Shown: positions 1-58,139 of the stretch, in pieces
How positions within the stretch are numbered: position 1 is the first letter of the stretch
How the letters are laid out: each line of letters begins with the position of its first letter
NCBI GenBank assembly: GCA_964646385.1
Contig: CAZYEC010000004.1
Location: 7,056-69,134 of the forward strand
DNA from: an uncultured Eubacteriales bacterium
Lineage (GTDB): Bacteria > Bacillota > Sulfobacillia > Fermentithermobacillales > Fermentithermobacillaceae
Reading direction: 5' to 3'
DNA length: 62,079 bases
Translations under genes and position numbers: made by a program
Notes under the pieces: generated by a model
What the model saw: the letters and a program-made list of their open reading frames with translations, nothing else
What the model was told of the DNA's origin: nothing
Database searches by the model: none

Positions 1-969
1 GGGGACCACTCTGGTCCCTGAAAAACTCAAAACTTCCTCTGGGTCGCGCTCCTCAATAGGGATATCGTGGCGGTATTTCATGCCAAGGTCGAAGGTGGAT
101 ACAGGCGCAGCCACATAAAAGGGTACCCTGTGTCGTTGGGCCACGCAGGCCAGCGTGTATGTCCCAATTTTGTTGGCAACGTCCCCGTTCCCTGTTACCC
201 TATCGGCACCCACGACAATAAGGTCCACCTTCCCTTGGGAAATCAGGTATCCTGCCGCGCCGTCAACAAGAACGGTCACTTCTATGCCGTCTTGAACCAG
301 CTCCCATGCCGTCAACCTTGCCCCCTGCAAGTACGGCCTCGTCTCGCATGCATAAACCATCTCGACTTTGCCTTCTTCCCAAGCCTTTCTCACAACACCC
401 AGGGCGGTGCCGTAACCGCCCGTAGCCAAGGCCCCGGCGTTGCAGTGAGTAAGGAGCCGCGACCCGGGTTTGACAAGCCTGGCCCCGTTGGCGCCGATTG
501 TCCGGTTTATCTCAAGGTCTTCCCGGTGGATGGCAAGCGCTTCATCTTCGGCTGCCTGGACGGCCGCTTCTCTGCCCCTTTCCCCCAAAGCCCTCAAAGC
601 TGCGGCTGACACACGGTCAACAGCCCACTTAAGGTTGACTGCTGTAGGGCGAGCCGAGATCAAGTACCGCGCTGCCGCCGTTATGCAACCGGCGCATGCT
701 TGCACGTTCACGGAAATCTTGCCGCCCATCCAACGCCCCGCACCGCCGGCACCGGTACTGCTCTCCCGACCACAACATTGTGAAACGGCCAAGGCCAAAG
801 CATAGCCGCCCGCAATTCCGATGGCGGGGGCTCCTCTGACCACCATGGCAGTTATCCCGTCGGATATTTCCCGGAAATTACTGCATTTCACGTACTCTGT
901 GCGGTCGGGCAGAAGTCTTTGATCCAACAACAGAATGCTATCCTTCTGCCATATCACCGCCTGGATCAT
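1..969 (-). CDS. mtnA: Methylthioribose-1-phosphate isomerase (runs off the left edge of the window; not in the ORF track)
   Basis: Manual translation from ATG at 969 (SD GGGGTGA): MIQAVIWQKDSILLLDQRLLP...MVVRGAPAIG...VYACETRPYLQGARLTAWEL...VGADRVTGNGDVANKIGTY. Confidence 0.93.
   Translation of the reverse strand, partial: MIQAVIWQKDSILLLDQRLLPDRTEYVKCSNFREISDGITAMVVRGAPAIGIAGGYALALAVSQCCGRESSTGAGGAGRWMGGKISVNVQACAGCITAAARYLISARPTAVNLKWAVDRVSAAALRALGERGREAAVQAAEDEALAIHREDLEINRTIGANGARLVKPGSRLLTHCNAGALATGGYGTALGVVRKAWEEGKVEMVYACETRPYLQGARLTAWELVQDGIEVTVLVDGAAGYLISQGKVDLIVVGADRVTGNGDVANKIGTYTLACVAQRHRVPFYVAAPVSTFDLGMKYRHDIPIEERDPEEVLSFSGTRVVP
865..879. repeat. 15-bp palindrome TATTTCC-C-GGAAATT (NBS-like site, copy 1)
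   Basis: Exact 14-mer TATTTCCCGGAAAT, also at 9023 and 57482; lies inside mtnA. Confidence 0.7.
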
Positions 970-1008
970 GTTGTTCACCCCAACAACACCATAATGCCCA
1001 GACTCCGT

Positions 1009-1806
1009 TCAGGATGCAGGGCCCAAATTTTTTCCGCACCCGCATCCCCGTTCAACAGGTACGGATTCTATGATTCTGGCAACCATTTTTTTCAGGATGG
1101 CGGTATGCTCTCTGAATACCTTTACGACCTCACCCTGTGTTACAGGCCGGATGTCCGCCCTACCCTCCAAACCCGCATCATAGTCCGTTATCAAGGCCAC
1201 GTTTAGGTAACACATGCCCAATTCCGCGGCAAGCACCACTTCTGGATAGCCGGTCATGTTAATAACTTTCCAACCTTGGGCAGAAAACCAGCGAGACTCG
1301 GCTTTGGTGGAAAACCGCGGGCCTTGTATTACCACCATGGTCCCACTTTCATGGTAAGAGATACCCAATTCATTGGCGCAGGAAAGGGCGATGCGGCGCA
1401 TTTCCGGGCAATACGGCTCGGCAGAACTCAGATGCACCGCCTTGGGCCCGTCGTAAAAGGTGTCTTTACGTCCGGTAGTCCTGTCGACGAACTGGTCCGA
1501 AATGACGAAATCTCCCGGTTTTACGTCCGGGTGAAGGCTGCCGGCCGCGCAGGGGCCTATGACCCTCGCTACCCCCAGCTCCTTTAGGGCCCACACGTTT
1601 GCCCTGTAATTCAGAGTGTGCGGCAAGAACTGATGGTGTCTTCCGTGACGTGGAAGAAAGGCCACTTGGGTCCCTCCCAAGTTTCCCAGGGACACTAGAT
1701 CGCTTGGTGGCCCGTAAGGAGTATCCACTTTCACTTCTGTAACATCATCCAAAAACTTGTAGAAGCCGGTGCCACCTATCACTGCGATGCTGGCTTTCTG
1801 TTCCAT
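1009..1806 (-). CDS. mtnP: S-methyl-5'-thioadenosine phosphorylase (MTAP)
   Basis: IAVIGGTG, TPYGPPS, FLPRHGRHH, QGPRFSTKAES, VINMTGYPE, ITDYD motifs; C-terminal CxC. Confidence 0.92.
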   Translation of the reverse strand: MEQKASIAVIGGTGFYKFLDDVTEVKVDTPYGPPSDLVSLGNLGGTQVAFLPRHGRHHQFLPHTLNYRANVWALKELGVARVIGPCAAGSLHPDVKPGDFVISDQFVDRTTGRKDTFYDGPKAVHLSSAEPYCPEMRRIALSCANELGISYHESGTMVVIQGPRFSTKAESRWFSAQGWKVINMTGYPEVVLAAELGMCYLNVALITDYDAGLEGRADIRPVTQGEVVKVFREHTAILKKMVARIIESVPVERGCGCGKNLGPAS

Positions 1807-1848
1807 GCGAATTGCCGCTTTTGCGGCCTTCCCCCCTCGCTTGTATGA

Positions 1849-3300
1849 CTACCCTTTTATGACGCCTAAGGGCCGCAACCGGGCAACCTTTCGCCCGAGG
1901 CCTGCCCGGGCAGTAGAATCCACAACCTCATCAACATTCTTGTAGGCTGAGGGAGCCTCTTCCACAAGCCCTTTTACGGTCGAGGAGCGCACAATGACTC
2001 CCATCGACAACAGCTCTTGCTTGAGATCGTCGGCCAAAAGTGCCTTTTTCGCCTGACTTCTGGACATGGCTCGCCCCGCACCGTGGCAGGCCGAACCAAA
2101 AGAAAGCTCCGCTGAATCTGTAATCCCCGCAAGCACCCACGAGGCGCGGCCCATGTCGCCCGGTATTAACACGGGCTGTCCAACATTTTTGAACTCCGGG
2201 GGGATAGCCGGAGACCCGGGTCCGAAAGCCCGAGTTGCTCCCTTACGGTGCACAAGAACTTTTCGGTCGTCTTCTCCCACCTTGTGCTTTTCGATTTTCC
2301 CAATGTTGTGCGCCACGTCATAAAGCAGTCTGGAGCTGCGGGATGCGCTTTTACCCAGGATTTCGCCGACGGCTTCCCGGACGAAGTGGGACAAAACCTG
2401 TCTGTTGGCCCAAGCATAGTTGGAGGCGGCAACCATCGCTGAAAAATACGTTCGGCCTTCAGGGGACGAAATCGGGACAGAGTCCAACTGCCTGTCCGGC
2501 TGGACGGTCCCGTAGTCCACGGCAGCCCGGCGCATAATTTTGATGTAATCGGTACACACTTGATGGCCCAAGCCCCGGGATCCTGAGTGTACCCACAGAA
2601 CCACCCGGTTCTCCCCCAGTCCGTAAACAGAGGCAATATTATGATCATAGACCCTTTCAACATACCCAATCTCAATAAAGTGGTTGCCCGACCCCAAAGT
2701 TCCCAAACCGCCGGCGCCTCGCCGGATCGCCCTATCTGATACGGATGAGGGGTCGGCTCCGGCCATGGAACCGTTTTCCTCGGATCGTGCCAAATCTTCC
2801 TGATACCCGTATCCGTTTTTGACGGCCCATTCGGCCCCAGTCAACAAGACCTCTTCCATTTGTTTTCGATCCAAACGAATAGGCCCGGCTTTGCCCACCC
2901 CCGCGGGAATCCGTTTGAAAAGAGCATCTACCAGTTCTTGCATTTTCCCCAGGACATCGCATTTTTCCAAATCGGTGACCATTACCCGCACTCCGCAGTT
3001 AATGTCATAACCGATTCCGCCCGGAGTTATCACGCCCTTTTCCATGTCCATTGCGGCAACTCCGCCTATTGGGAACCCGTATCCTTCGTGGATATCGGGC
3101 ATGGCTATGGATGCCTCCAGGATGCCGGGCAGGCAAGCGACGTTCTTCACCTGTTGAATGGCCTTGGACCCGATTTGCTCCGATACCACCTCTTGGCTGC
3201 CGAAGATTCTCCCTTGAACCACCATCTTCCCTTCGGGGGGAATAACCCAATGACAGTCTCCCTTTCTTACAAAGCCCTCAAACACGTCTTTGTCAGACAC
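1849..3300 (-). CDS. rtcB: RNA 2',3'-cyclic phosphate/5'-OH ligase RtcB (long, archaeal/eukaryal-like type)
   Basis: MPDIHEGYGFPIGGV, GYDINCGVR, GSGNHFIE, HSGSRG, HNIGK, HRKGATRA, PGDMG, SACHGAGR; 483 aa. Confidence 0.96.
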   Translation of the reverse strand: MSDKDVFEGFVRKGDCHWVIPPEGKMVVQGRIFGSQEVVSEQIGSKAIQQVKNVACLPGILEASIAMPDIHEGYGFPIGGVAAMDMEKGVITPGGIGYDINCGVRVMVTDLEKCDVLGKMQELVDALFKRIPAGVGKAGPIRLDRKQMEEVLLTGAEWAVKNGYGYQEDLARSEENGSMAGADPSSVSDRAIRRGAGGLGTLGSGNHFIEIGYVERVYDHNIASVYGLGENRVVLWVHSGSRGLGHQVCTDYIKIMRRAAVDYGTVQPDRQLDSVPISSPEGRTYFSAMVAASNYAWANRQVLSHFVREAVGEILGKSASRSSRLLYDVAHNIGKIEKHKVGEDDRKVLVHRKGATRAFGPGSPAIPPEFKNVGQPVLIPGDMGRASWVLAGITDSAELSFGSACHGAGRAMSRSQAKKALLADDLKQELLSMGVIVRSSTVKGLVEEAPSAYKNVDEVVDSTARAGLGRKVARLRPLGVIKG

Positions 3301-3320
3301 CTGGCATCCTCCTCCAATAT

Positions 3321-3785
3321 TCAGATGTCTAATGTAACGATGATTTCCCTTCCGTTTACCAGCAGATCGTGGTAGGTAGCAGCTTTGAAGTAGCGCATCA
3401 AGGGGGTCGTCATCGATTCCACAAGGGCACCGCTCAGGATCGCAGTCGCTCTGAACCCTTCACGACTTTCGCGAGAGCCGCAGTCTGACTCCATCACGGC
3501 CACGGACAGGACATCTCGGGCGACAAACCCGTCGGCGTCCACCAAAAAGATCTGTTCGTTTAGAAGATTGACTATCAGCTCGTGTCGATCCTGAGCGGTG
3601 ACAGACACACGAGCTTCTTTTTCTGGGGGAACGTTTTGAGGTTCCGCCACAAGTCTCCAAAACGCCCGAATAAGCATGCCCGCCGTATCGCTCAGGTCCG
3701 CACCCCAGGCTCTGATTCTCACGTCCGACGCGTGCTCAAGGTATTCGAAACCGCCCACTTGCGTTTCCTCGCTACTCGGCTTCAA
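3321..3785 (-). CDS. Archease (RtcB cofactor)
   Basis: [30 protein letters not shown], terminal DI; directly upstream of rtcB and overlapping the gyrA stop. Confidence 0.9.
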
Positions 3786-8422: not shown

Positions 8423-9292
8423 TCATTTCCTAGGAATCAAGGGTGCCAAACGCTTTCCCAGCGCTTTTTCAAAATCTTTGTGGCTCATTTTGTCTGCTCC
8501 GATGCCCGACCTTAAAGAAGCCAGTTTTTTTGCACATTCGGCCGTTTCCTGGGAACCGCTTTCTTTCCCCGCAGACCGAAAAACTTGACCTCGAAGGTAA
8601 TTCAACAACCGGGATTCCAGTGCGTTTCTCGCCCTTTGCGCAACAAAAGGATCGCGAATCCGGCACGCGTCGCATACCTGGCGGTCCGAAAGCGCCGGAG
8701 TCTTCTCAAGAATAACTATTGCACGGTGGTAACCATACGATTCCTCGCGATCCCGGCAGTAAGGACACCCCTTCTGCGAGCCTTCATACATCCACCCACA
8801 CTTTTTGCAATGTACGAACCCCGCGGCCTCAAGAAATGTCTTGTTCTTCCCCGCGGCCTTTTTCAAGGACTGGAGAGTTCCGCTCAAATCTTTTTCGGAG
8901 CCCCGCGATCCGCCCTGAGAGCGTCTCTTACCCCCCAATGTGGCTTCTTTCCCCGGCACCGCCCGGGCAGTGGCAACCCGGATATTGTTGGCCGCAAATT
9001 CCCAGAGGTGTTCAGAAAACTTTATTTCCCGGAAATAGCTGCCTCCCAAAGCGGCGTTTAGCTTGGCAAGAATGCCCTGGCTCATATAGGAAAGTTCTTG
9101 AGACCAAACCGAAGAAGCAGTGGCCACGTACAGGACATCGCCGTCTACCCGTCTCGGTTGGGCATGGCCGGCCAGTCTTCCGACCACTCGGGGCCAAATG
9201 CCATATATGCGATATTTTCTGGCCTTTTCGAACAAGCCCAAGCCATCGAGGCTTTCCCGAAGCACCTGTTCAATGTTCACAGGGTTTGCCAC
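8423..9292 (-). CDS. dciA: DciA (DUF721) helicase-operating protein with Zn-ribbon extension
   Basis: WPRVVG..A.HAQP..VDGDVLYVATASSVWSQELSY....IL.KLN..LG...F.EIKF; CKKC...CPYC. Confidence 0.8.
   Translation of the reverse strand: MANPVNIEQVLRESLDGLGLFEKARKYRIYGIWPRVVGRLAGHAQPRRVDGDVLYVATASSVWSQELSYMSQGILAKLNAALGGSYFREIKFSEHLWEFAANNIRVATARAVPGKEATLGGKRRSQGGSRGSEKDLSGTLQSLKKAAGKNKTFLEAAGFVHCKKCGWMYEGSQKGCPYCRDREESYGYHRAIVILEKTPALSDRQVCDACRIRDPFVAQRARNALESRLLNYLRGQVFRSAGKESGSQETAECAKKLASLRSGIGADKMSHKDFEKALGKRLAPLIPRK
9023..9037. repeat. Perfect 15-bp palindrome TATTTCC-C-GGAAATA (NBS-like site, copy 2)
   Basis: Perfect 7-1-7 inverted repeat inside dciA. Confidence 0.7.
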
Positions 9293-13400: not shown

Positions 13401-13432
13401 CTATGCACATAGTTATCAACAGCTGTGGATAA
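13401..13432. promoter_or_regulatory. DnaA-box cluster upstream of dnaA (second half of oriC, autoregulation)
   Basis: CTATGCACA 13401-13409, TTATCAACA 13413-13421, perfect TGTGGATAA 13424-13432. Confidence 0.8.
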
Positions 13433-19813: not shown

Positions 19814-20614
19814 GTGTCGGTAGGCGCGTTGTTGGACAAGTTCGAGACGGCGGATGTTCCCACGGATCGTATAGAGATGAGGGTGGGGGCTTGCGTGCCG
19901 GGCGGCACGGGGTCAGTTAGAAAGAAGATTATCAAGAACCTTGTGAGAGGGAGCAGGGCTCCAATTTTCGTTCGCCCGGTTGGGGATAAATACGAGCTGG
20001 TTGCCGGGGATACCGAATTCTTAGCCGCCCGTAAACAAGGGCAGGTCGCAGTGCGCGTGTTTCTCTCTGCTCTGGACGATAAAGATGCTTTGTTTTTGCG
20101 GCTTCACGAGGGTGGGCAAAGGCGCGATCTTAATGCGGTTGAGGAGGCAGAAATAATCAGGGAACTCAATGTGGAACACGGGTTGACACAGCAGGAAATA
20201 GCCGTGAGGTGCGATAGGGTCCAATCGACAATAGCGAACAAGTTAAGGCTGCTATCCTTGCCATCTGAAATCCTGGCAAGCCTTCGAAAGGGCGAAATCG
20301 GGGAGCGACACGCCAGGGCGCTTCTCAAGTTGAAGGACAGAGATAAGCAGATGGAGGCCTTCCAACGTTTGATGCGGTGGGGTTTGTCTGCAAAGGATGT
20401 GGAATCTCTATGCAGTGTTTTGACCGGAGACAAAAGCCGCCGGAACACTAAGCGAACGACGCAGGGCGCCGTGAAGGATCCGCGCATTTATCAAAACGCG
20501 TTGCGGAGCGTTGTCAGGGAGATGCAAAAAGCAGGACTGGAGGCCGTGTGTGAAGAAAACGTGACCCACGACAAATGGGAATTTCGCGTAACTGTGGACG
20601 TTACCGATTTCTGA
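19814..20614 (+). CDS. noc: Noc-like ParB paralogue with a degenerate CTP-binding domain
   Basis: rsmG-[x]-parA slot; HTH GLTQQEIA..QSTIANKLRLL, IGERHARAL, Noc-like C-terminus DPRIYQNALR; GERR motif replaced by GDTE. Confidence 0.8.
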   Translation: MSVGALLDKFETADVPTDRIEMRVGACVPGGTGSVRKKIIKNLVRGSRAPIFVRPVGDKYELVAGDTEFLAARKQGQVAVRVFLSALDDKDALFLRLHEGGQRRDLNAVEEAEIIRELNVEHGLTQQEIAVRCDRVQSTIANKLRLLSLPSEILASLRKGEIGERHARALLKLKDRDKQMEAFQRLMRWGLSAKDVESLCSVLTGDKSRRNTKRTTQGAVKDPRIYQNALRSVVREMQKAGLEAVCEENVTHDKWEFRVTVDVTDF

Positions 20615-20628
20615 ACCGGCGTGGTGGC

Positions 20629-21405
20629 ATGTCAAAAGTAATAGCGATCGCAAACCAGAAAGGCGGGGTAGGAAAGACTACTACCGCGATAAATCTTGGC
20701 GCTTGCTTGGGCGACTTGGGGCGCTCTGTTTTGTTGGTGGATTTAGACCCCCAAGGGAATGCGTCGAGCGGAGTAGGAGTGGATCGGCACGGCAGCGGGC
20801 CGTACCTTTACGATTCTCTCATAGGGGAACTTGCTCCTGCCAAAGTTCTGAGGGCCACAGGCTTCAGGGGTCTTTCCATTTTGCCTTCTTCCTTGGACCT
20901 GGCCGGCGCCGATATTGAGCTGGTTAACATGTCGGGCCGCGAATCCCGATTAAAAAGGATAGTTGCCACACTTAGAGACGATTTTGACTACACCCTGATT
21001 GACTGTCCGCCTTCTTTGGGTCTTCTTACGATAAATGCCTTTACGGCCGCCGACTCAGTATTGATTCCCATCCAGTGTGAGTATTACGCTTTGGAAGGGT
21101 TGACGCAGCTACTAAGTGTCATAAAGCTTGTGAGGGGTAGGCTCAACTCCTCTTTGGATCTCGAGGGTGTTTTGCTCACCATGTTTGACGGAAGGACGAA
21201 TTTGTCGCTGCAAGTGGCAGAAGACGTGAAAAGATATTTTCGGGACAAGGTGTACCTTACCATTATTCCAAGAAATGTTCGACTGTCGGAGGCCCCCTCT
21301 CATGGAAAACCTATACACATTTATGATCCCAGGTCCCGAGGGGCCGAGGTTTATCAAGAATTAGCCGAGGAGGTCTTGCGGCGTGGCCAGAAAGAGCTTA
21401 GGTAG
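20629..21405 (+). CDS. parA: Chromosome partitioning ATPase ParA/Soj
   Basis: IAIANQKGGVGKTTT, DLDPQGNAS, IDCPPSLG, EYYALEG, IPRNVRLSEAPSHG. Confidence 0.97.
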   Translation: MSKVIAIANQKGGVGKTTTAINLGACLGDLGRSVLLVDLDPQGNASSGVGVDRHGSGPYLYDSLIGELAPAKVLRATGFRGLSILPSSLDLAGADIELVNMSGRESRLKRIVATLRDDFDYTLIDCPPSLGLLTINAFTAADSVLIPIQCEYYALEGLTQLLSVIKLVRGRLNSSLDLEGVLLTMFDGRTNLSLQVAEDVKRYFRDKVYLTIIPRNVRLSEAPSHGKPIHIYDPRSRGAEVYQELAEEVLRRGQKELR

Positions 21406-22237
21406 GGGAATTGAGGCCCTCATACCTATCGCAGCCCCCGAGGAATCCGGCGGGGACGTGCTTCGGTTGAAAACCAACCAGATTGAGGCAGATCCAAACC
21501 AGCCCAGGCAGGTCTTTGATGAGGCCAAGATCCGGGAACTTGCTTCATCCCTGAAAGAACATGGGATGATTCAGCCTCTAATCGTCCGGCGAGTGGGCGA
21601 TGTTTACAGATTGGTGGCAGGGGAGCGTCGCCTTAGGGCCGCCGAGCATGCGGGAATGACTGAAATACCGGTAGTGTTGAGAGAAATGGACGACAGGGAG
21701 GCAATGGAAGTCTCCTTAGTGGAAAACCTGCAAAGAGAAGACTTGGGTCCCCTTGAGCAGGCGGCTGCCTTCCAGCGCCTTGTGGATGAATTCGGGTTGA
21801 CTCAGGAAGAGATTGCCAGGCGTGTGGGAAAGAGCAGACCCGACGTGGCCAATACGCTGCGTCTCTTGAAGCTGGAACCTGAGGTCAAAGTCCTTGTCAA
21901 TGAAGGCAAAATCTCCGGTGGACACGGGCGGGCTTTGGTTACCTTGGATAGAGGGACCCAGTTGAAAATAGCTGAAGCCGTTTTGAGGCAAGGATTATCT
22001 GTGAGAAAGACTGAAGAAGCGGTAGCAAGAGAGGTGAACCGAAAAGTTGCTCGCGGGGGGAGAGCCCCGGTGTGGGTTCGCCGGCAGGATGCCGAGGAAT
22101 TGTTGTCTGCAGCCTTGGGGAGCCCCGTACTGGTCAAGAGCTACCGCAACAAAGGCTCCATAGAGATTACCTTTTACGGCGAAGAAGACCTTGAGCGTCT
22201 TATCGATCTGGTCCACGGGGGGACGCGCAAGGACTGA
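21383..22237 (+). CDS. parB: Chromosome partitioning CTPase ParB/Spo0J
   Basis: PNQPR, GMIQPLIVR, VAGERRLRAA, ENLQREDL, SRPDVANTLRLL, SGGHGRAL. Confidence 0.97.
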   Translation: MARKSLGRGIEALIPIAAPEESGGDVLRLKTNQIEADPNQPRQVFDEAKIRELASSLKEHGMIQPLIVRRVGDVYRLVAGERRLRAAEHAGMTEIPVVLREMDDREAMEVSLVENLQREDLGPLEQAAAFQRLVDEFGLTQEEIARRVGKSRPDVANTLRLLKLEPEVKVLVNEGKISGGHGRALVTLDRGTQLKIAEAVLRQGLSVRKTEEAVAREVNRKVARGGRAPVWVRRQDAEELLSAALGSPVLVKSYRNKGSIEITFYGEEDLERLIDLVHGGTRKD

Positions 22238-22248
22238 GCCGTACAGCC

Positions 22249-22264
22249 TGTTTCACGTGAAACA
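22249..22264. promoter_or_regulatory. parS centromere site
   Basis: Perfect TGTTTCACGTGAAACA just after the parB stop. Confidence 0.95.
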
Positions 22265-23518: not shown

Positions 23519-24514
23519 ATGGCAAAAGCGGCACGGAAAATTTGGTTAAAACGCCTACACAAGACCCCGGGAGTAAAACCGGCGGACAAGTTTTTCACGC
23601 TGTTGCTAGTTCCGTCCCACGGCAACAGCCGGTCTGTTCGCTTCAGCAGAAAACTGGCCAGGGCTTTTGCAGTTACCGCTGTCCTGTTTGCAGTGTCTTT
23701 GTCATACTTTATCGCGTCATACAGGGCCAATAGGGCTGAGCTGGCAGAGCTCATGTATATGCGGGATGTCGCCGAATCCCAGAGGGTTGAAATAATGGCT
23801 CTGGATGATCAGTGCAAATCCTTGTCTCTGCGCCTGAAGGAAGCCGAGGTCGTTGAGGCACAAATCACCAATATGCTTGCTAACGAGGGTTTGCTTTCCC
23901 AAGAATCGGGCATGGCTGCGGCTGTGGCCGATTTTGACAGGGGCAGGACGATCCTCCCTTCAAGGGGCGGCGAATCTCGGCAAGAACGGGTGGCCCCCAA
24001 GGATCTTGGGACGCTGCTGTTGAAAACCGGTTCTGAGGCCGATGGGCTGGAAAAGCGGCTGGACGAGGTTAGCGCCGGGGTGGCCCGGTTGCTGGAGGAT
24101 GCGGTTCAAACGGTGGCCTATTTTCGGGCAAGGCCAAACCAGTGGCCGGTATCGGGTCGGATTTCGTCACCTTTCGGGCCCCGTCGTCATCCAATTACTC
24201 GGCGTCTGGAAACGCACGAGGGCACAGATATTGCGGCCCCATACGGGGACAAGATCCTGGCTCCGGCAGACGGCGTCGTCACCTTTGCGGGCTACAAGGC
24301 GGGTTACGGCTATTGCCTTGTAATTGAGCATGACTTTGGTTTCGAAACCCTGTACGGTCATTGTTCCAGGCTTACCGTCAGCCTCGGGGACACAATCATT
24401 CGTGGAGACCACATCGGGAACGTGGGGCAGTCCGGGGTGGCCACAGGCCCACACCTCCATTACGAGGTTCATGTGAAGGGCAAGAAGGTTGATCCCGAAA
24501 AATACCTTCCCTGA
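23519..24514 (+). CDS. Membrane-anchored coiled-coil M23 endopeptidase
   Basis: N-terminal FTLLLVPSH motif, TM helix, coiled coil, HEGTD, YGHC, ATGPHLHYEV. Confidence 0.9.
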   Translation: MAKAARKIWLKRLHKTPGVKPADKFFTLLLVPSHGNSRSVRFSRKLARAFAVTAVLFAVSLSYFIASYRANRAELAELMYMRDVAESQRVEIMALDDQCKSLSLRLKEAEVVEAQITNMLANEGLLSQESGMAAAVADFDRGRTILPSRGGESRQERVAPKDLGTLLLKTGSEADGLEKRLDEVSAGVARLLEDAVQTVAYFRARPNQWPVSGRISSPFGPRRHPITRRLETHEGTDIAAPYGDKILAPADGVVTFAGYKAGYGYCLVIEHDFGFETLYGHCSRLTVSLGDTIIRGDHIGNVGQSGVATGPHLHYEVHVKGKKVDPEKYLP

Positions 24515-24531
24515 AACGGAGGGACAGAGGT

Positions 24532-24936
24532 ATGTTCGGCAGAATGGACTCCGGTCCCAAAAGCGGTTCTTTTGAGAGTTTGGTGGGGAAAGGCATGGAA
24601 ATTACCGGCACTGTCAAATCAAAAGGAAGTCTGCGCATAGAGGGCAGCGTTGAAGGAGATATCGCATGCCTGGGAGACGTAGCAGTGGGTGACGGGGCTG
24701 TCGTCAACGCCGACGTCACCGCGAACAATGTTACGGTGGGCGGGACGGTCAAAGGTAACATTCTGTGTTCGGGCAGACTCGAACTGCTTCCCGCCGCTCG
24801 GGTCGTCGGGGACGTCACTTCGTCCATGTTGGTGGTGGCAGAGGGAGCCGTTTTGGCCGGAAAAGCGTGCGTGGCTGACCCGGCCAAGAGGAAACCTCCG
24901 GTAACAGAAGCGACCGGCGAAAGTCCGGAAGACTGA
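24532..24936 (+). CDS. Bactofilin (polymer-forming cytoskeletal protein)
   Basis: LVGKGMEITGTV...LRIEGSVEGDI...V.VGDGAVVNADV...VTVGGTVKGNI...LVVAEGAVLAG beta-helix repeats. Confidence 0.92.
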   Translation: MFGRMDSGPKSGSFESLVGKGMEITGTVKSKGSLRIEGSVEGDIACLGDVAVGDGAVVNADVTANNVTVGGTVKGNILCSGRLELLPAARVVGDVTSSMLVVAEGAVLAGKACVADPAKRKPPVTEATGESPED

Positions 24937-30285: not shown

Positions 30286-31239
30286 TTGAGAAATCTTACT
30301 GCACGGCCTTTGGTGGAAAGCGCGCTGTTGGCCGCCCTCGGGGCTGTGCTGATTCTGTTCGCTTTTTACATGCCGGTCCTTGGGGTCGTCGTAGCCCTGG
30401 CATCGCCGTTGCCCGCCGCTTTTGCCGTTATTCGCCACGGGGGCCGCTGGGGTTTGCTGACTTCCATAGTGTCAATTTTGGCGCTTCTCCCGTTTGTGGA
30501 TTGGATTACCGCGGTCGGCCTGTGGATCCTTTACGGGTGGGTGGGCCTGGCTTTTGGCATTGCCGTAAGACGGCAGTATTCGGCGGGATTGGTCTTGGCT
30601 GTCACGGCTCTTGCCTTTGTTTTCGGTGTGCTTTCGGTGTTCGTCACCTCATATTTGGTGACGGGGTTGAGCCTTTTCGATTTCGTGGATCAGCTGATTA
30701 AATCCGTTGAAATTGCCGTTAGGATGAACGAGAGGATTTTGGGCCCAAACCCTGTTCTTGACCAGATTGCAGCTTCTCTTTCCGAAAGAGATGTCTTGCT
30801 GAAAATGATACCGTCAACCGTTGTCCTATCGAGCCTGCTGTTGGCTTACGTGAATATTGAGGTCTTTCGCCGGGTAATGCCGCGGTTTGGTTACAATATT
30901 GAGGGGTTGCCTCCTTTCTCGAGGTGGATTTTCCCGGAAATAGTCGCTTGGATTGGTCTCCTGGGCCTATTGGGTATACCTTATCTTCCCATGAATGCGA
31001 TGAAAACCGCAGCTGAAAACATTTTTATCATTGTGGCTTTTCTGGCCCACCTCCAAGCGCTGTCCTTCATTTCCTTCTTTCTTCTGCGAGCGGGTTTCCC
31101 CAGGCTCATGACCGGACTGGTAGTCGTGTTCGTTCTTAGCGTAACCCTTACTGCCCCGGGCTTCTCTTTCATCGCTTCCTTTTTTGGTATGATAGATATG
31201 CTTTTTGACTTCAGACGAGTTAGATACGGTTTGGCGTAA
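30286..31239 (+). CDS. yybS: YybS/DUF2232 membrane protein
   Basis: LVESALLAAL..., many TM helices, terminal D.LFDFRR; slot between rpsR and rplI. Confidence 0.88.
   Translation: MRNLTARPLVESALLAALGAVLILFAFYMPVLGVVVALASPLPAAFAVIRHGGRWGLLTSIVSILALLPFVDWITAVGLWILYGWVGLAFGIAVRRQYSAGLVLAVTALAFVFGVLSVFVTSYLVTGLSLFDFVDQLIKSVEIAVRMNERILGPNPVLDQIAASLSERDVLLKMIPSTVVLSSLLLAYVNIEVFRRVMPRFGYNIEGLPPFSRWIFPEIVAWIGLLGLLGIPYLPMNAMKTAAENIFIIVAFLAHLQALSFISFFLLRAGFPRLMTGLVVVFVLSVTLTAPGFSFIASFFGMIDMLFDFRRVRYGLA
30928..30942. repeat. NBS-like 15-bp site ATTTTCC-C-GGAAATA (near copy)
   Basis: Core TTTCC-C-GGAAA intact, two outer mismatches; inside yybS. Confidence 0.5.
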
Positions 31240-36435: not shown

Positions 36436-36525
36436 GGAGGGGTGGCAGAGCGGTTGATTGCGGCAGTCTTGAAAACTGCTGAGGGTGCAAGCCCTCCGTG
36501 GGTTCGAATCCCACCTCCTCCGCCA
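36436..36525 (+). tRNA. tRNA-Ser(TGA)
   Basis: Cloverleaf, GCAGT-CT TGA AA-ACTGC, long variable arm, encoded CCA. Confidence 0.97.
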
Positions 36526-36526
36526 C

Positions 36527-36555
36527 TTGGAACGCCTGGCCATGCGTGATAAAAT
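36527..36555 (+). promoter_or_regulatory. Second sigmaA promoter within the tRNA cluster
   Basis: TTGGAA-N17-TAAAAT with TG extension. Confidence 0.55.
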
Positions 36556-36599
36556 AGGTTTTGCGGGGCTCTTTGGGAAAGAGCGTCAGGTTTTTACGC

Positions 36600-36691
36600 G
36601 GAGAGGTCGCCTAGCTGGCCGAGGGCGACGGTTTGCTAAACCGTTAAGGGGGTAAACCCCTTCGAGGGTTCGAATCCCTCCCTCTCCGCCA
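36600..36691 (+). tRNA. tRNA-Ser(GCT)
   Basis: ACGGT-TT GCT AA-ACCGT, long variable arm, CCA. Confidence 0.97.
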
Positions 36692-36697
36692 GAAATT

Positions 36698-36774
36698 GCG
36701 CCCGTGGCTCAATTGGATAGAGCGACAGACTACGGATCTGTAGGTTGTGGGTTCGAGTCCCGCCGGGCGCACCA
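36698..36774 (+). tRNA. tRNA-Arg(ACG)
   Basis: ACAGA-CT ACG GA-TCTGT, A20, CCA. Confidence 0.97.
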
Positions 36775-36795
36775 TCAGCGATAATCGGTCTTGAT

Positions 36796-36874
36796 GCGCC
36801 CGTAGCTCAGGCGGATAGAGCGGGGGATTCCTAATCCCCGTCTGCCGGAGGTTCGAGTCCTCCCGGGCGCACCA
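36796..36874 (+). tRNA. tRNA-Arg(CCT)
   Basis: GGGGA-TT CCT AA-TCCCC, A20, CCA. Confidence 0.95.
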
Positions 36875-36891
36875 AATTCTTTGGTAATGGA

Positions 36892-37365
36892 ATGAATGGT
36901 GTAACGTTGGATGAATTTGCTTTCGGCATGGGACTGGCAATCCGAGAGGCTTTGCGGTCCTACAGGTTGGAAGAAGTGCCTGTGGGGGCTGTAATACTGA
37001 AGGATGGAGTCCTCATTGGAAGAGGGCACAACCTTAAAGAGACTTTAGGAGACCCTACCGCCCACGCTGAAATTCGGGCTCTTAGGGAAGCGGCCCAACA
37101 TGAGGACTCTTGGCGCATTTTGGGTGCCACTATGTATGTGACTCTTGAACCTTGTCCAATGTGTGCCGGGGCGATTGTCTTGGCCAGAATACCGACTTTG
37201 GTCATAGGGGCCAAGGACCCTAAAACCGGCGCTTGCGGTTCCGTCATGGATATCACAAGTGACGGAAGACTGAATCACAGGGTAAACGTCGTATACGGCG
37301 TAAGACAAGAGGAATGCGCCTCGTTGTTAGAGGCGTTTTTCAAAGACCTCAGGGAAAAGGGGTAA
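36892..37365 (+). CDS. tadA: tRNA adenosine(34) deaminase
   Basis: EVPVGAVI, DPTAHAEI, YVTLEPCPMCAGAI, DPKTGACGS, LNHRV. Confidence 0.96.
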   Translation: MNGVTLDEFAFGMGLAIREALRSYRLEEVPVGAVILKDGVLIGRGHNLKETLGDPTAHAEIRALREAAQHEDSWRILGATMYVTLEPCPMCAGAIVLARIPTLVIGAKDPKTGACGSVMDITSDGRLNHRVNVVYGVRQEECASLLEAFFKDLREKG

Positions 37366-37372
37366 CCTTTTC

Positions 37373-37462
37373 GGAGGGGTGTCGGAGCGGTTGAACGAGC
37401 TCGCCTCGAAAGCGAGTAGGCGTTTACGCGCCTCGTGGGTTCGAATCCCACCCCCTCCGCCA
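37373..37462 (+). tRNA. tRNA-Ser(CGA)
   Basis: CTCGC-CT CGA AA-GCGAG, long variable arm, CCA. Confidence 0.97.
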
Positions 37463-37483
37463 TTGGATGTTGATATCGACCGC

Positions 37484-37573
37484 GGAGGGATGTCCGAGCG
37501 GCTGAAGGAGCACGCCTGGAAAGCGTGTGGACGGGGAACCGTCTCGTGGGTTCAAATCCCACTCCCTCCGCCA
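37484..37573 (+). tRNA. tRNA-Ser(GGA)
   Basis: CACGC-CT GGA AA-GCGTG, long variable arm, CCA. Confidence 0.97.
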
Positions 37574-37589
37574 TGCCGTCAAAAAGTTT

Positions 37590-37858
37590 GGCCGTGCTAA
37601 ATGGGGAGATAGCGGTGCCCTGTAACCCGCAATCCGCTACAGCGGGATTGAAGCCTTTCATGCGGCCGTGCCTTTTTGGGGCCGGCCTGGGCGGGCGGCG
37701 TTGAAGGTTGGGTCCTGCGCAATGGAAACTCGTGAACCCCGTCAGGTCCGGGAGGAAGCAGCGGTAAGCGAATCTTTCCATGTGCCGCAGGGGTTCCTGA
37801 CCGGAGCAAGCCACTCAGGTATCGCCTGGGGAGGGCGGTCAAGGGAAGGTGCACGGCC
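37590..37858 (+). ncRNA. ffs: Large (Alu-containing) bacterial SRP RNA
   Basis: Terminal helix GGCCGTGC/GCACGGCC; helix 8 core GTCAGGTCCGGGAGGAAGCAGC; about 270 nt, upstream of dnaX. Confidence 0.93.
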
Positions 37859-52028: not shown

Positions 52029-52072
52029 GAAAACACCCCCATCCTCCGCATACACCGGGAGTTCTGCCCCGG

Positions 52073-53468: not shown

Positions 53469-53559
53469 AAGGTCGTGTGCGGCGCCGGTAAAAAGGCGAC
53501 TGTGTCAGGTTTTCCGCGCGAACGTGCATAAGTTCGCCGTATGATGGGTTTAGGTCGTA

Positions 53560-53587
53560 TTGACAGCGCCCGGCCAGTGGGTAGAAT
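53560..53587 (+). promoter_or_regulatory. sigmaA promoter upstream of rpoE-pyrG
   Basis: TTGACA-N16-TAGAAT with TG extension. Confidence 0.65.
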
Positions 53588-53635
53588 GACTTGGAGCATT
53601 GAGGTTTTCAAACACAAAAAGTTGGGGGTAGTACT

Positions 53636-54046
53636 GTGAGCGATGCCATCCAATTTCAAAGCCCCCGTGCTAAGCCTTCGGTTGGGGACATGGCCTATCG
53701 CGTCCTGAAAGAACGCAGGGAGCCCATGAAGTACAAAGACCTTGTCCACGAAGTCTTAATCCAAAGGGGCGTTTTGCCCGGGCCCGATTTTTCTAGGCTC
53801 ATGGCTAAAACCCATACCGATTTGAGCCTCGACAACCGGTTTTTGAACCGGGGAGGCGGGATGTGCGGCCTTCGGGAATGGACGGTCAAACCTCTTGCGT
53901 ACAAGGTGGTGGAGCTCTCCAACGCCGAAAGGCTCAAACCTGGGGAACGGCTGCGGAGAGAACTGGTAACCGTTGACGAAGGTTATCAAAACGAACAGCC
54001 ACAAGAAGAAACACTAGGGGAGCCCGAAGAACCCGAGGAGGGGTAG
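53636..54046 (+). CDS. rpoE: RNA polymerase delta subunit (HARE-HTH)
   Basis: [26 protein letters not shown]...G..GLREW; adjacent to pyrG. Confidence 0.8.
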
Positions 54047-54078
54047 GGCTCCCTCCTCTTTATAGGAGGTCAACTGCG

Positions 54079-55695
54079 GTGCCTAAGTTCATATTTGTTA
54101 CGGGAGGGGTTGTTTCAGGCCTCGGGAAGGGAATTACAGCCGCTTCAATTGGCGCGTTACTGAGGGCCAGAGGGTATTCGGTTACCATCATGAAGATGGA
54201 TCCCTATATAAACGTTGATGCCGGTACCATGAGCCCCTTGCAGCACGGTGAAGTGTTTGTGACGGATGACGGTGCGGAAACCGATCTGGATTTGGGGCAT
54301 TATGAAAGGTTCATAGACAGATCGTTATCGGCTGCTAACAACATAACCACAGGGCAGGTTTACGGTTCCGTCATCGACAAAGAACGGAAAGGCGATTTTT
54401 CCGGGAGTACAGTCCAGGTAATCCCCCATGTGACTAACGAAATTAAAGATAGGATCAGAAAGGTAGGGCACGAGTCCGGGGCAGATTTTGTGATCGCGGA
54501 AATCGGTGGTACAGTCGGGGATATTGAAAGCTTGCCTTTTTTGGAGGCCATAAGGCAGTTCAGGGCTGACGCGGGCTTGAAAAACACGCTTTACGTCCAC
54601 GTTACTCTCATCCCGTACATATGGGGGACAGGCGAACTCAAAACCAAACCCACCCAGCACAGCGTCGCTGAACTAAGATCAATAGGAATCGCTCCCGATA
54701 TTCTGGTTTGCAGGTCCAATTACCCTCTGTCCGGGGACACCAAGGACAAGCTTGCCCTGTTCTGCAGCGTGGACCGCCACGCCGTGATTCAGAACCTTAA
54801 TGCCGCGAGTATTTACCAAGTACCTGTCATGATGGAGGAAGAAGGTATAGGATGCATTGTGGAAGACAAGCTTGGCTTGGGAAGGCGGGAGCCGGATCTT
54901 GCCGAGTGGACCAAAATCGGGGTTAAGGTTGGGAACCCAAGCAAGGAATGCAAAGTTGCTATCGTGGGAAAGTATGTGGCCCTCCACGATGCCTATAGCA
55001 GCGTGGTGGAGGCTCTAAGCCACGGGGGCCTGGCTAACGACGCCAAAGTAGAAATTCGCTGGGTCAATTCTATCGATCTGGACGGAGCCACCCAAGAGAC
55101 GGTCAAAGCCGCGTTGAATTGTGCTGACGCGGTGCTTGTGCCCGGGGGATTTGGGAAAAGGGGCGTTCCGGGCAAAATCAAAGCCGTCAGGTACGCCAGG
55201 GAGAACGATGTGCCTTTTTTTGGAATATGCATGGGGCTGCAATGTGCGGCAGTAGAAATCGCGAGACACGTTTTGGAGCTGCCCTGCGCCAATTCGTCGG
55301 AAATCGAGCCCGACACCGGGGATCCCGTCGTCGATCTTTTGCCCGAACAAAAAGGGGCCCAAGGCTGCGGCGGAGACATGCGTCTGGGTCTCTACCCGTG
55401 CCGCTTGAAACCCGGGTCTTTGGCCATGAGGGCGTATGGGGCTGAAATCGTAAAAGAAAGGCACAGGCATCGTTTCGAGATTAACCCCAGGTATGTGGCG
55501 GCCCTAAACGAGGCGGGGCTTCTGACAACCGGCATATGGCCGGCTAGGGGGTTTGTGGAAATCATGGAGCTAAGAGGTCACCCCTGGTTTGTCGGGGTTC
55601 AATTTCATCCGGAATTGGTTTCGAGGCCTCACAGGCCGCACCCTTTGTTCAGAGATTTTGTTGCGGCTGCCATAAATAAGCGAGAAAGAGCGTGA
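54079..55695 (+). CDS. pyrG: CTP synthase
   Basis: [48 protein letters not shown]. Confidence 0.98.
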
Positions 55696-55783
55696 GACCC
55701 TGACAAGCCCCGCCGTGAAGAGACGACTCTCTCATGCAATCAGGCTTTGTAACTAATTAAGGAAAACATGGGGTGATTTTCGG

Positions 55784-57183
55784 ATGGGGTAGGAATCACC
55801 GACACCACTCTTAGGGACGGGCATCAATCCCTCCTTGCTACGCGCATGAAAACCCAAGATATGCTTCCTATTGTGGAAAAGATGGACCAAGTAGGTTTCC
55901 ATTCCGTGGAGGTTTGGGGCGGCGCCACTTTCGATACATGTTTACGGTTTTTGTCGGAGGACCCTTGGGAAAGGCTCAGGGCCTTTAAGCGGGGTTTCAA
56001 AAATACGCCGCTTCAAATGCTCTTGCGAGGCCAAAACCTGGTAGGTTACAGACACTACCCTGATGATGTGGTGGAGCAATTTGTGAAGGCAGCGGTTGCC
56101 AACGGTATTTCCATCATGCGAATCTTCGACGCTTTGAACGATCCTCGCAATATGAGGCGCGCGATGGAAGTCTCAAAAGAAATGGGTGCACACGTTCAGG
56201 CCACGGTTTGTTTCACCATCAGCCCGGTCCACGACTTGAAGCACTATGTGGCTGTTGCAGGGGAGCTCCGGAAAATGGGCGCCGACTCCTTGTGCTTAAA
56301 GGATATGGCGGGGATCATTTCGCCTACCGAAGCCCACGATATCGTGAAGGCATGGAAAGATGAGCTGGGACTTCCCGTGCAGCTTCACTCTCACTACACT
56401 TCGGGCATGGCCTCCATGGCTTACCTCAAGGCGATAGAGGCCGGATGCGATGTTGTGGATTGTGCCATCTCGACCATGTCTATGTCCACTTCGCAACCGC
56501 CGGTGGAGAGCATGGCGGCCGCCCTTCAAAGCACTCCCAAAGATTCCCGGCTGGATCTGAACCTGCTTTCAGAAATCGCCGAGCATCTCAAAGGGGTAAG
56601 GGCAAAGTACGGGGCCTTTGACACCGCTTCGGCGGTACCCGACACTAACGTCTTGCGGTACCAGATTCCCGGGGGAATGATTTCCAATTTCATTTCCCAA
56701 CTGCGCGAACAGGGTCAGATTGAAAAACTCTCTGAGGTGTTGCAAGAAGTGCCCCGAGTGAAAGCCGATCTTGGGCATCCACCACTGGTGACCCCTTCCA
56801 GCCAGATAGTTGGCACCCAGGCGGTGCTGAACGTTCTTATGGGCGAACGTTACAAAATGGCCACCAACGAAGTGAAGGACTATTTGAGGGGACTTTACGG
56901 CAAGGCACCGGGTCGGGTGAGCATTGAGGTTCAAAAGAAGGTGATAGGGGATGAAAAGCCCATTTCCGGCAGGCCCGCAGATCTTATCGAGCCGGGCATG
57001 GCAAAAGCCAAACGGGAATTGGGCCACCTATATTCAAAGGAAGAAGATATACTTTCTTATGCCTTGTTCCCGCCCCAGGCCAAAAAGTTTCTGGAGGAAC
57101 AACTTGCCAAAAGAACCGGAGTCGATTACAACCTTTTGGAACAAGCCGTAAAAGAGCATCCCAAAGGTTTCGCTCCCGTATGA
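55784..57183 (+). CDS. Oxaloacetate decarboxylase alpha/pyruvate carboxylase B-type carboxyltransferase subunit (no biotinyl domain); frameshift at codon 2-3
   Basis: ITDTTLRDGHQSLLATRM, WGGATFD, MLLRGQN, CLKDMAG, HSHYTSG, QIPGGM, PPLVTPSSQ; the SD-spaced ATG at 55784 is out of frame. Confidence 0.85.
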
Positions 57184-58139
57184 TGGTTTCGAAGGGGGAA
57201 GTCGGCTTGAAGGAAATCGATATCTTCCAGGTGGATGCCTTTACCGATGTGTTGTTCGGCGGAAACGCGGCAGGGGTTGTTCCCGATGCCACCGGTTTGT
57301 CCGGCGATGTAATGCAAAAAATCGCTGGGGAGATGAACTTGTCTGAGACGGCTTTTGTCCAAGGCGGGGGCCAGAGCGGGCCTGCCGATTTCGAGGTCAG
57401 GTTTTTTACCCCTGTATCCGAGGTGGACTTGTGCGGGCACGCGACTATAGGCGCCTTTTGGCTATTGGCCGAACTAGGGGTTATTTCCCGGAAATTGCCG
57501 GATGTGAGGGTGACCCAGGAGACCAAAGCCGGAGTTTTGCCTGTGGACATCGAGTACGGTTGCGAAGGCGCCCTGTCCCGGGTGATGATGACTCAAAATG
57601 CCCCTGAAGTCGTGGCGGAACTCTCTTTTCAAGAGGTATCGGAACTGGAAGAGCTGCTGGGGGCCCCCCAAAGTTCCATTGGGGGTTTTGGCCGCGCCAG
57701 GCCCCAGGTTGTTTCCACGGGGTTACCGGACCTGATCACTCCTGTGATTTCTCGAGAAGCCCTTTTGTCCATGAGGCCGAACATGGCGCCGCTTACGGAT
57801 TTTTGTAATGATCGCGGCATAATAAGCGTCCACTGCTTTTCCCTTGACACGGTGCATCCCGCCGCCACGGTCCACTGCAGGGATTTTTCTCCGGCCGTGG
57901 GGGTGCCTGAGGAACCGGCCACGGGCACTGCTTCCGGTGCCACCGGAGCTTATTTGGCCCTGAACAATTTGGTCAGGATTTCTAGTCCTACAACTCGGAT
58001 TGTCTGCGAACAAGGGCACATCCTCAAGCGTCCCTCCAAAATACATGTTGAAATCACCAAGGAAGGGCCAAATGTCGTGGGTGTCAGGGTGGGCGGAAGC
58101 GCAGTCACCGCCATCTCTGGCAGAATCAGAATTCCGTAG
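57180..58139 (+). CDS. PhzF/diaminopimelate-epimerase-like isomerase
   Basis: FQVDAFT...GGNAAGV, SETAF, EVDLCGHAT, EEPATGTA, EQGHILKRPS. Confidence 0.9.
   Translation: MMVSKGEVGLKEIDIFQVDAFTDVLFGGNAAGVVPDATGLSGDVMQKIAGEMNLSETAFVQGGGQSGPADFEVRFFTPVSEVDLCGHATIGAFWLLAELGVISRKLPDVRVTQETKAGVLPVDIEYGCEGALSRVMMTQNAPEVVAELSFQEVSELEELLGAPQSSIGGFGRARPQVVSTGLPDLITPVISREALLSMRPNMAPLTDFCNDRGIISVHCFSLDTVHPAATVHCRDFSPAVGVPEEPATGTASGATGAYLALNNLVRISSPTTRIVCEQGHILKRPSKIHVEITKEGPNVVGVRVGGSAVTAISGRIRIP
57482..57496. repeat. 15-bp palindrome TATTTCC-C-GGAAATT (NBS-like site, copy 3)
   Basis: Identical to 865-879; inside the phzF-like gene. Confidence 0.7.

Follow-up and report, generated by a model that had tools for sequence, protein, structure and literature searches.

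Why does a 15-bp palindrome recur inside unrelated genes around a bacterial replication origin, and why does it resemble a Noc binding site (NBS) from which one central base has been removed? The window analysed here, a stretch of 62,079 nucleotides, is the oriC region of a MAG of an uncultured member of the Bacillota, class DTU015 (Ca. Fermentithermobacillia). A preliminary description of the sequence had listed three exact copies of the palindrome and three near copies, and all six were found again at the positions it gave (Table 1). The 14-mer TATTTCCCGGAAAT occurs exactly three times in the whole window (865-878, 9023-9036 and 57482-57495) and is the only 14-mer there with at least three copies, the only further 13-mer to reach that number being a tRNA T-arm. 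Among 100 dinucleotide shuffles, not one produced three copies. The sites at 865 and 57482 carry a terminal T, and the one at 9023 is perfect. The canonical 16-bp NBS, in which the outer half-sites stand two base pairs apart (7-2-7), had been described as missing, and a search of the window allowing up to three mismatches returned the 15-bp sites themselves and nothing else. The CodY box, AATTTTCWGAAAATT, was dropped as a candidate, as it agrees at only 10 of 15 positions, and the sole literature matches to the motif sequence, eukaryotic STAT3 probes, were judged a coincidence.

Table 1. Palindromic sites and genes discussed in the text, with positions in the window.
Feature	Position	Strand	Details
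15-bp site TATTTCCCGGAAATT in mtnA	865..879	minus-strand gene	AAT TTC CGG GAA ATA = NFREI; exact 14-mer
Imperfect site CATTTCCGGGCAATA in the MTAP gene (mtnP)	1399..1413	minus (TATTGCCCGGAAATG)	2 mismatches to the 15-mer
Perfect palindrome TATTTCC-C-GGAAATA in dciA (DUF721)	9023..9037	minus-strand gene	YFREI; exact 14-mer
noc ortholog, candidate binder	19814..20614	+	266 aa; gene order gidB-noc-soj-spo0J; alignment; AF2 model
soj/parA	20575..21405	+	NCBIfam ParA-family matches
spo0J/parB	21383..22237	+	canonical GERR and ENLQRE, read from sequence; NCBIfam parB_part match, 178 bits
Perfect canonical parS TGTTTCACGTGAAACA	22249..22264		directly after spo0J
Near copy ATTTTCCCGGAAATA in a DUF2232 membrane-protein gene	30928..30942	plus	IFPEI; 2 mismatches; Pfam match
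Near copy GATGTCCGGGAAATA in dnaX	38637..38651	gene plus; motif minus (TATTTCCCGGACATC)	DVREI; 2 mismatches; NCBIfam match
15-bp site TATTTCCCGGAAATT in a PhzF-family gene	57482..57496	plus	exact 14-mer

We asked whether the motif might be a by-product of coding that has no role as DNA, arising where local codon bias meets conserved peptides (FREI, for example). Two of the strong sites do share the FREI peptide and its reading frame. However, all six sites are intragenic in unrelated genes, on both strands, and they use three frames and three peptides, in agreement with what had been described. We also carried out the codon-preserving shuffles that had been suggested as a check (n = 3000, with the protein sequences and the codon usage of each gene held fixed). 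The 13-mer core, present three times in the window, was expected 0.08 times on average, and matches to the 15-mer with up to two mismatches numbered six against an expected 0.67; neither observed value was reached in any of the 3000 shuffles. Given the peptides at the strong sites, the codon usage of the window yields the motif codons in 0.3-0.5% of cases. A shared peptide had been thought to account for two copies at most, and on the shuffles and these codon odds we rejected it as the cause.

Further evidence came from origin-proximal DNA of relatives, fetched as loci of up to 21 kb by protein-anchored locus retrieval; retrieval with the MTAP protein of the window gave only a 1.3-kb contig. 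Among palindromes with 6-mer halves, ATTTCC-N-GGAAAT is the most frequent in the closer relatives. It is found at about 13 different positions, and those in dciA, mtnP, mtnA and dnaN, four in all, are orthologous. The preliminary description had proposed that the two spacings be counted against each other, and across 313 kb of close relatives TTTCC and GGAAA were separated by 0, 1, 2 or 3 bases 2, 24, 1 and 0 times, respectively. The 7-2-7 NBS was not found in about 375 kb of origin-proximal DNA from this lineage. A symmetrised logo of 37 sites gave T.64, A.96, T 1.0, T.88, T.81, C 1.0 and C 1.0 for the half-site, the central base at every site is a single C or G, and the sequence flanking the sites is not conserved. 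The claim that these are NBS half-sites (TATTTCC) in a non-random 7-1-7 arrangement is thus borne out by the shuffles, the half-site identity and the enrichment at the one-base spacer only.

Where a relative does not carry exactly the motif codons, its codons for the same peptide have drifted; at the sites, the synonymous choices are frozen, whereas neighbouring codons drift. The mtnA site has an orthologous copy in eight further relatives' loci (two of which are near-duplicate assemblies), with a synonymous codon identity of 0.59 against 0.37 in the rest of the gene, and relatives without the site encode the same or a similar peptide with other codons. The dciA site, located between recF and gyrB, has an orthologous copy in 12 loci despite a protein identity of merely 34-52%, and synonymous identity is 0.72 at its motif codons versus 0.40. 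At the mtnP site (coding strand TAT TGC CCG GAA ATG, YCPEM), codon identity among close relatives is 100% compared with 0.42-0.43 in the remaining gene. In an unbiased synonymous-constraint scan, the dciA, MTAP and mtnA sites fell in top-ranking windows of their own genes; the MTAP site ranked first of all windows, and the mtnA site, at 0.87 (background 0.39), was the highest window of its gene. In dnaN, the peptide LFREM is written CTT TTC CGG GAA ATG in nine loci and TTG TTT CGG GAG ATG in the window. Flips of the central base keep the palindrome at the cost of an amino acid: the mtnP site of one relative (L134) has CGG for CCG, which replaces proline with arginine (YCPEM to YCREM), and in recF the flip exchanges ISG and ISR. 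These data show that the relatives maintain the motif by selection at the DNA level. The same-peptide recoding, the amino-acid-changing centre flips and the restriction of the enrichment to one spacer join the shuffles in contradicting a coding by-product, which is largely refuted and to which we assign a negligible probability, even though several motif-like matches in one sub-clade, described below, belong to the P-loop of TrmE (SGKS).

A selected palindrome could serve as some other DNA-level signal, such as a restriction-modification or methylation target, a recombination site or a hairpin element, and its shortness and G:C centre are like those of many type II restriction targets. Restriction targets, however, are usually avoided rather than held at orthologous positions where DnaN identity is merely 65-78%. 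Uptake sequences and REP elements would come in more copies than are seen, a hairpin formed by an A/T-rich 7-1-7 palindrome would be weak, and the flanks are not conserved. We regard signals of this kind as very improbable.

Conservation does not extend to every site. The 57482 site (ATT TCC CGG AAA TTG, ISRKL within VISRKL) encodes part of a variable protein loop and is not conserved in three relatives, whose orthologs read ATT TCG GGG AAG and similar; the difference reflects a lineage-specific gain or loss. Since, in addition, the 59 kb around the equivalent position, to the right of the origin, contain no site in these three relatives, the sites turn over and their density is not uniform. 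It may be low beyond the cluster on the dnaN-gyrA-mtnA side. There is also no site in the approximately 10 kb on both sides of noc, in the window, in the relatives' loci L001-L005 or in loci L166-L170 of the sister clade P0044/P0046; as the window is empty over that stretch as well, these loci are uninformative.

The preliminary description had suggested that the sites are bound by an altered Noc encoded at 19814. This protein is indeed a syntenic ortholog of Noc: its gene is a parB paralog between gidB (rsmG) and soj-spo0J, an order kept in L001-L005 and L166-L170, all of which also carry the parS TGTTTCACGTGAAACA at the equivalent place. A residue-level alignment with Geobacillus Noc (structure 7NG0) showed that the recognition helix QSTIANKLRLL and the segment ERHARAL are identical. 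The NBS-specificity residues Q173, K179 and R201 are present, and position 184 is Ser; in earlier work, Q173, R201 and one Lys (179 and/or 184) sufficed for NBS specificity, the half-site being defined by A1 and C6 (PMC7383237). The AF2 model (pLDDT 85) has the three-domain ParB/Noc fold, with the Noc structures 7OL9 and 7NFU as top PDB matches and KorB structures among the fold matches, and its DNA-binding domain superposes on 6Y93 with a TM score of 0.84-0.89 and an rmsd of 2.4-2.5 Å. The match to TIGR04285 scores 169 bits, below the cut-off of 315, and is limited to model positions 40-253. The alteration concerns the CTP motifs: GERR is replaced by GDTE (GDTEFL) and ENLQRE by EGGQRR. Both GERR and ENLQR are missing in 46 of the 46 closest homolog clusters and present in all more distant homologs with readable motifs. 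The N terminus, VSVGALLDKF, is conserved in the clade, is modelled as a short helix and is unlike the Bacillus peptide MKHSFSRFFG.

On the basis of sequence, the WATTTCC-S-GGAAATW palindromes are probably chromosomal binding sites of a dimeric helix-turn-helix protein, most likely the lineage's Noc ortholog, a prediction favoured by the match of the half-sites, by the residues that read them and by a covariation, if partial, across sub-clades. In a sub-clade whose helix reads QCT(V/I)(A/S)NK, mostly with GERQARAL instead of GERHARAL, the orthologous sites are absent and the motif is not enriched. Neither a de novo search for palindromes nor scans for synonymous constraint revealed a substitute motif in this sub-clade; they returned only DnaA-box pairs and coding features. 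The covariation is imperfect because of two exceptions: two sites persist in L126 despite a proline in its helix (VQPTVANK), and L136, with a QCT helix, has two one-mismatch sites. A control, of a kind proposed in the preliminary description, was provided by 20.8 kb from the equivalent region near the origin of one clostridial genome with a canonical Noc; there the NBS occurs twice in its 16-bp form, and the 15-bp site is absent.

The imperfect covariation would also fit an operator for some other protein that binds DNA as a dimer, be it a transcription factor or a nucleoid-associated protein, whose half-site resembles that of the NBS by coincidence. Consistent with such an operator, the sites are concentrated in a handful of genes left of oriC (dnaN, recF, dciA, mtnP and mtnA) and are not visibly scattered. 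A change in spacing of 1 bp rotates the half-sites by about 35 degrees relative to each other, which a Noc dimer may or may not tolerate. On the other hand, the chance of a seven-of-seven match to the NBS half-site is about 6e-5, exclusively intragenic sites are unusual for an operator, and the lineage retains a Noc ortholog with the exact NBS-reading residues but, in the origin-proximal DNA covered, no 16-bp NBS for it to bind. We therefore consider a different protein unlikely, and favour the Noc ortholog as the binder.

If Noc is the binder, half-site positions 1-6 (A-T-T-T-C-C) would be read as in the canonical Noc-NBS complex, with Gln173 reading A1, Arg201 reading C6 and Lys179 making a permissive contact. 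The half-sites would lie 1 bp closer, a single central G:C pair common to both replacing the central CG step. The Noc variants R89A and N121S retain nucleation and lose spreading and membrane binding (PMC8429893). Because R89 (in GERR) and N121 (in ENLQR), which B. subtilis Noc needs for CTP, are absent here, the ortholog has presumably lost CTP binding, and it would nucleate at its sites but neither close into a sliding clamp with CTP nor form a CTP-dependent complex at the membrane. Without engagement of the N-domain, the spacing of the half-sites may also be under less geometric constraint. In the cell, the protein might bring about nucleoid occlusion by a different route, or it might organise or control the region near the origin. 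More tentatively, and with a little less than even confidence, we propose that throughout DTU015 Noc has turned into a CTP-independent site-specific DNA binder, with selected, intragenic sites near the origin compressed from 7-2-7 to 7-1-7.

Noc and ParB are a model system for the evolution of DNA-binding specificity and for CTP-switch proteins. To our knowledge, work on them to date has dealt with base changes in 16-bp sites of fixed spacing, and with proteins that all bind CTP. If our reading is true, this clade is a natural one in which the base-reading residues were kept while the half-site spacing changed and the CTP motifs were lost, a natural case in the ParB family of operator re-spacing coupled to loss of the CTP clamp. 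The lineage then allows direct tests of whether N-domain (CTP) engagement fixes operator geometry, and of what a Noc can do if it neither spreads nor binds the membrane in a CTP-dependent way. The sites are selection-validated targets for binding assays in an uncultured class, and they illustrate that synonymous-site constraint alone can reveal intragenic protein-binding sites, here putative ones.

Among known systems, the closest is the NBS of Bacillus subtilis and Staphylococcus aureus, TATTTCCCGGGAAATA, 16 bp long with a 14-bp core; in B. subtilis, dozens of copies are scattered over the chromosome, with none near the terminus. The 15-bp sites are likewise palindromic and within coding regions, and the outer seven bases of each half-site (TATTTCC) are identical, but the two canonical 8-bp half-sites abut at a central CG, whereas the sites of this lineage have one central base pair. 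Their candidate binder shares with Noc (TIGR04285; 7OL9, 7NFU and 6Y93) its position between gidB and soj-spo0J, the three-domain fold including the C-terminal domain, and the DNA-reading segments. Across the lineage it differs in GD(T/A/I)E for GERR, EGxxR for ENLQR and the loss of box I, and its N terminus is not recognisable as a Bacillus-type membrane helix. ParB (Spo0J) and parS belong to the same protein family and follow the same palindromic logic, and the window contains both a perfect parS and a canonical ParB, which has intact CTP motifs and the parS-type residues Arg173 and Gly201; parS differs from the 15-bp site at half-site positions 1 and 6 and in spacing. A precedent for the geometry is KorB of plasmid RK2, a ParB-family protein that binds the single-base-pair-centred palindrome OB, TTTAGC-G-GCTAAA (PMC11790492), although its half-site sequence is another one and KorB is a plasmid transcriptional repressor that has retained CTP binding.

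The 14-mer TATTTCCCGGAAAT occurs three times in the window (865, 9023 and 57482), a number reached in 0 of 100 dinucleotide shuffles, which yielded not even one copy, and it is the sole 14-mer with at least three copies there; the only further 13-mer to reach that number is a tRNA T-arm. These three copies, the perfect palindrome and three near copies of the 15-mer were found as the preliminary description had reported them, and the 16-bp Noc-binding site (NBS) of B. subtilis, with half-sites spaced 7-2-7, is absent from the window, as it had also said. The flanks of the copies share no common sequence, so the palindrome is a discrete 15-bp element with no longer repeat around it. The copies had been placed in unrelated genes, and gene calls put all six inside genes (mtnA, dciA (DUF721), a PhzF-family gene, a DUF2232 gene, the methylthioadenosine phosphorylase-type (MTAP) gene mtnP and dnaX), with both strands and three peptide contexts represented.

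Positions of sites and other features, in window coordinates unless a locus (L) of another genome is named; locus counts include the near-duplicate assemblies L128/L142 and L133/L145 and so slightly overstate independence
Feature	Position	Remarks
Perfect 15-bp palindrome, TATTTCC-C-GGAAATA	9023-9037	
Near copies of the 15-mer	30928, 1399, 38637	
dciA site	9023 (orthologous)	12 loci
MTAP site	1399 (orthologous)	11 loci
mtnA site	865 (orthologous)	9 loci
dnaN site		9 loci
recF site		3 loci
Several other sites		one or two loci each
gyrA, gyrB, dciA, recF, dnaN, dnaA		gene order, minus strand
rnpA, yidC, jag, trmE, gidA, gidB, noc-like, soj, spo0J, alr		gene order, plus strand
DciA-family protein (PF05258, 289 aa)	8423-9292 (-)	gene between recF and gyrB
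Inverted DnaA-box-like 9-mers TTATCAACA and TTATCCACA	13413-13432	dnaA-rpmH intergenic region, at GC-skew flip
Syntenic Noc ortholog	19814-20614	
Perfect canonical parS TGTTTCACGTGAAACA	22249-22264	directly 3' of spo0J
M23 peptidase-bactofilin pair	23519-24936	after alr; common to the whole lineage, sister clade and clostridial control
Six tRNA genes (four Ser, two Arg), then large SRP RNA	36436-37856	just upstream of dnaX
dnaN frame with 3 in-frame stops	L135:10001-11130	MAG AnMBR.bin336; probably a frameshift or assembly error
TrmE P-loop codons (SGKS), xxTTTCCGGGAAATC	L138 5049, L139 5056, L151 5104, L156 5120, L162 5165	trmE

The recurrence could be a coding artefact of peptide and codon usage. 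We ran the codon-preserving shuffle that the preliminary description had proposed, on the window, permuting synonymous codons within each gene so that protein sequences and each gene's codon usage were unchanged. ATTTCC-S-GGAAAT was observed 3 times against 0.08 expected, and the 15-mer at up to two mismatches 6 times against 0.67; neither count was matched in any of 3,000 shuffles. Under the codon usage of the window, the motif codons are only a 0.3-0.5% outcome for each strong-site peptide. A coding origin is largely refuted, and we regard it as the least probable of the explanations considered here.

The GC skew switches sign near 12-13 kb, and together with the gene order and parS this identifies the window as the oriC region. 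The parS is the only one at up to two mismatches across the 62-kb window, and its place is kept in the noc-centred loci of relatives (L001-L005) and in the sister clade (L166-L170). The dnaA-rpmH intergenic stretch with the inverted DnaA-box-like pair is likely oriC; a counterpart of this pair, TATCCACA..TGTGGATA, is conserved in the loci of 12 relatives. DnaN-anchored retrieval placed the window within an uncultured Bacillota lineage to which 'Ca. Fermentithermobacillaceae' MAGs also belong, as does Ca. Fermentithermobacillus carboniphilus (class DTU015), which has a closed genome.

We examined another 35 origin loci with aligned DnaN; GTDB genomes of this lineage supplied 14 of them and metagenomes 21. 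The closer relatives form group A, with DnaN 65-78% and Noc-like protein 55-67% identical, and cover 313 kb when the window is counted. Among palindromes with 6-base halves in this DNA, ATTTCC-N-GGAAAT leads by a wide margin with 13 occurrences, and the runner-up has 5. The half-site spacing is specific: TTTCC and GGAAA separated by zero, one, two or three bases occur 2, 24, 1 and 0 times, favouring the single-base spacer. The sites occupy about 13 distinct positions across loci, and those visible in this origin-proximal DNA comprise lineage-specific copies and a cluster conserved on one side of oriC, that of dnaN-recF-dciA-gyrBA-mtnPA. The site at 57482 was not found in three relatives, in which the 59 kb around it held no copy at up to two mismatches, and no site was found within about 10 kb on each side of noc in any genome examined.

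Selection at these sites acts on the DNA rather than on the peptide. The gene carrying the best-conserved site is dciA, the product of which has a long, poorly conserved C-terminal extension; in the sister clade (L169 and L170) dciA directly follows dnaN without an intervening recF. DciA proteins are just 34-52% identical, and the site-bearing loci all read TAT TTC CGG GAA AT[A/T/C], while adjoining Gly, Ser, Phe, Arg and Glu codons are free to vary. Pairwise synonymous-codon identity was 0.72 for the motif codons of dciA versus 0.40 for the remainder of the gene, 1.00 versus 0.42 for MTAP (rank 1 of 267 windows) and 0.59 versus 0.37 for mtnA. In an unbiased 5-codon scan, the site was the top-ranked window of both MTAP and mtnA, the second of dciA and the third of dnaN; among the other high-ranking windows, many consist of C-ending two-fold codons in a run, a sign of codon bias. 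Loci are bimodal, with either the exact motif codons or other codons for the same peptide: dnaN LFREM is CTT TTC CGG GAA ATG in nine loci and TTG TTT CGG GAG ATG in the window, and mtnA DFREV in one relative (L126) is GAT TTT CGA GAG GTT. C/G flips at the centre retain the palindrome and alter the amino acid, as in recF (ATT TCC GGG, ISG, to ATT TCC CGG, ISR) and in MTAP of another relative, L134 (CCG, Pro, to CGG, Arg). New sites arise where the protein is variable, as with the one in recF and the one at 57482 in the PhzF loop. The site is a real, selected, lineage-specific variant of an NBS-type site. A restriction-modification or other DNA signal would also act at the DNA level, and we consider this very unlikely. 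A literature search for the sequence matched eukaryotic STAT3 probes and found no bacterial report.

A plausible candidate binder is the Noc ortholog, which the preliminary description had called an altered Noc; synteny supports the orthology, and its CTP motifs are replaced. Box I is lost, GDTE stands in place of GERR, and EGGQRR in place of ENLQRE. Box I, GERR and ENLQR are lost in all 46 closest homolog clusters, including the sister clade at about 40% identity, and every more distant homolog with readable motifs has AGERR and ENLQR. The window Spo0J keeps GERR and ENLQRE, with parS-type residues, so the loss of CTP motifs is specific to the Noc paralog. In B. subtilis, Noc R89A and N121S nucleate on NBS without spreading, liposome binding or complementation (PMC8429893). 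Alignment to the solved structure showed that the recognition helix QSTIANKLRLL and the ERHARAL segment are identical to those of Geobacillus Noc (7NG0). Noc specificity relies on Q173 reading adenine 1, R201 reading cytosine 6 and one Lys at 179 or 184 being sufficient (PMC7383237); at these residues the window protein carries Q, K179, S184 and R, and each half-site of the 15-bp motif matches NBS exactly over positions 1-6. Its AF2 model (pLDDT 85) has the three-domain ParB/Noc fold, with Noc 7OL9 and 7NFU as top PDB matches and a DNA-binding domain TM of 0.84-0.89 against 6Y93.

The comparison of canonical with altered Noc that had also been proposed was run on origin loci. The Clostridiaceae genome BRH_c20a, with a canonical Noc (AGERRF, ENLQRE), has the 16-bp sites TATTTCCCGGGAAATA and TATTTCCCGGGAAATG and no 15-bp site in its 20.8-kb origin locus, whereas group A has 7-1-7. 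Judged from these sequences, 7-2-7 is in use outside Bacilli, and 7-1-7 is the derived state. In a second sub-clade (group B, including Ca. F. carboniphilus), the helix reads QCT(V/I)(A/S)NK, mostly with GERQARAL; its altered-helix Noc-like genes lie upstream of dnaN (L136-L139, L151, L156, L159 and L162). Orthologous sites are absent from group B, without enrichment of the motif, and no recurrent palindrome for its Noc-like protein was found in 229 kb. Most of its few motif matches are TrmE P-loop codons, and the resemblance of the SGKS codons to the motif makes them false positives for any genome-wide scan. Site and helix do not covary perfectly: two sites are kept in L126 despite its VQPT, and L136, with QCT, has two one-mismatch sites. 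Another dimeric protein could bind the sites, which we think unlikely given the helix and half-site identities, albeit less so than a restriction-modification or other DNA signal.

We favour, with reasonable but not high confidence, the reading of the 15-bp palindromes as putative binding sites of the Noc ortholog, with NBS half-sites 1 bp closer and a Noc without the CTP switch. Such a protein would read half-sites compressed by one base pair, and we infer that loss of N-domain engagement may have released the constraint on their spacing. The ParB family offers a precedent for an odd-centred operator in KorB OB, TTTAGC-G-GCTAAA (PMC11790492).
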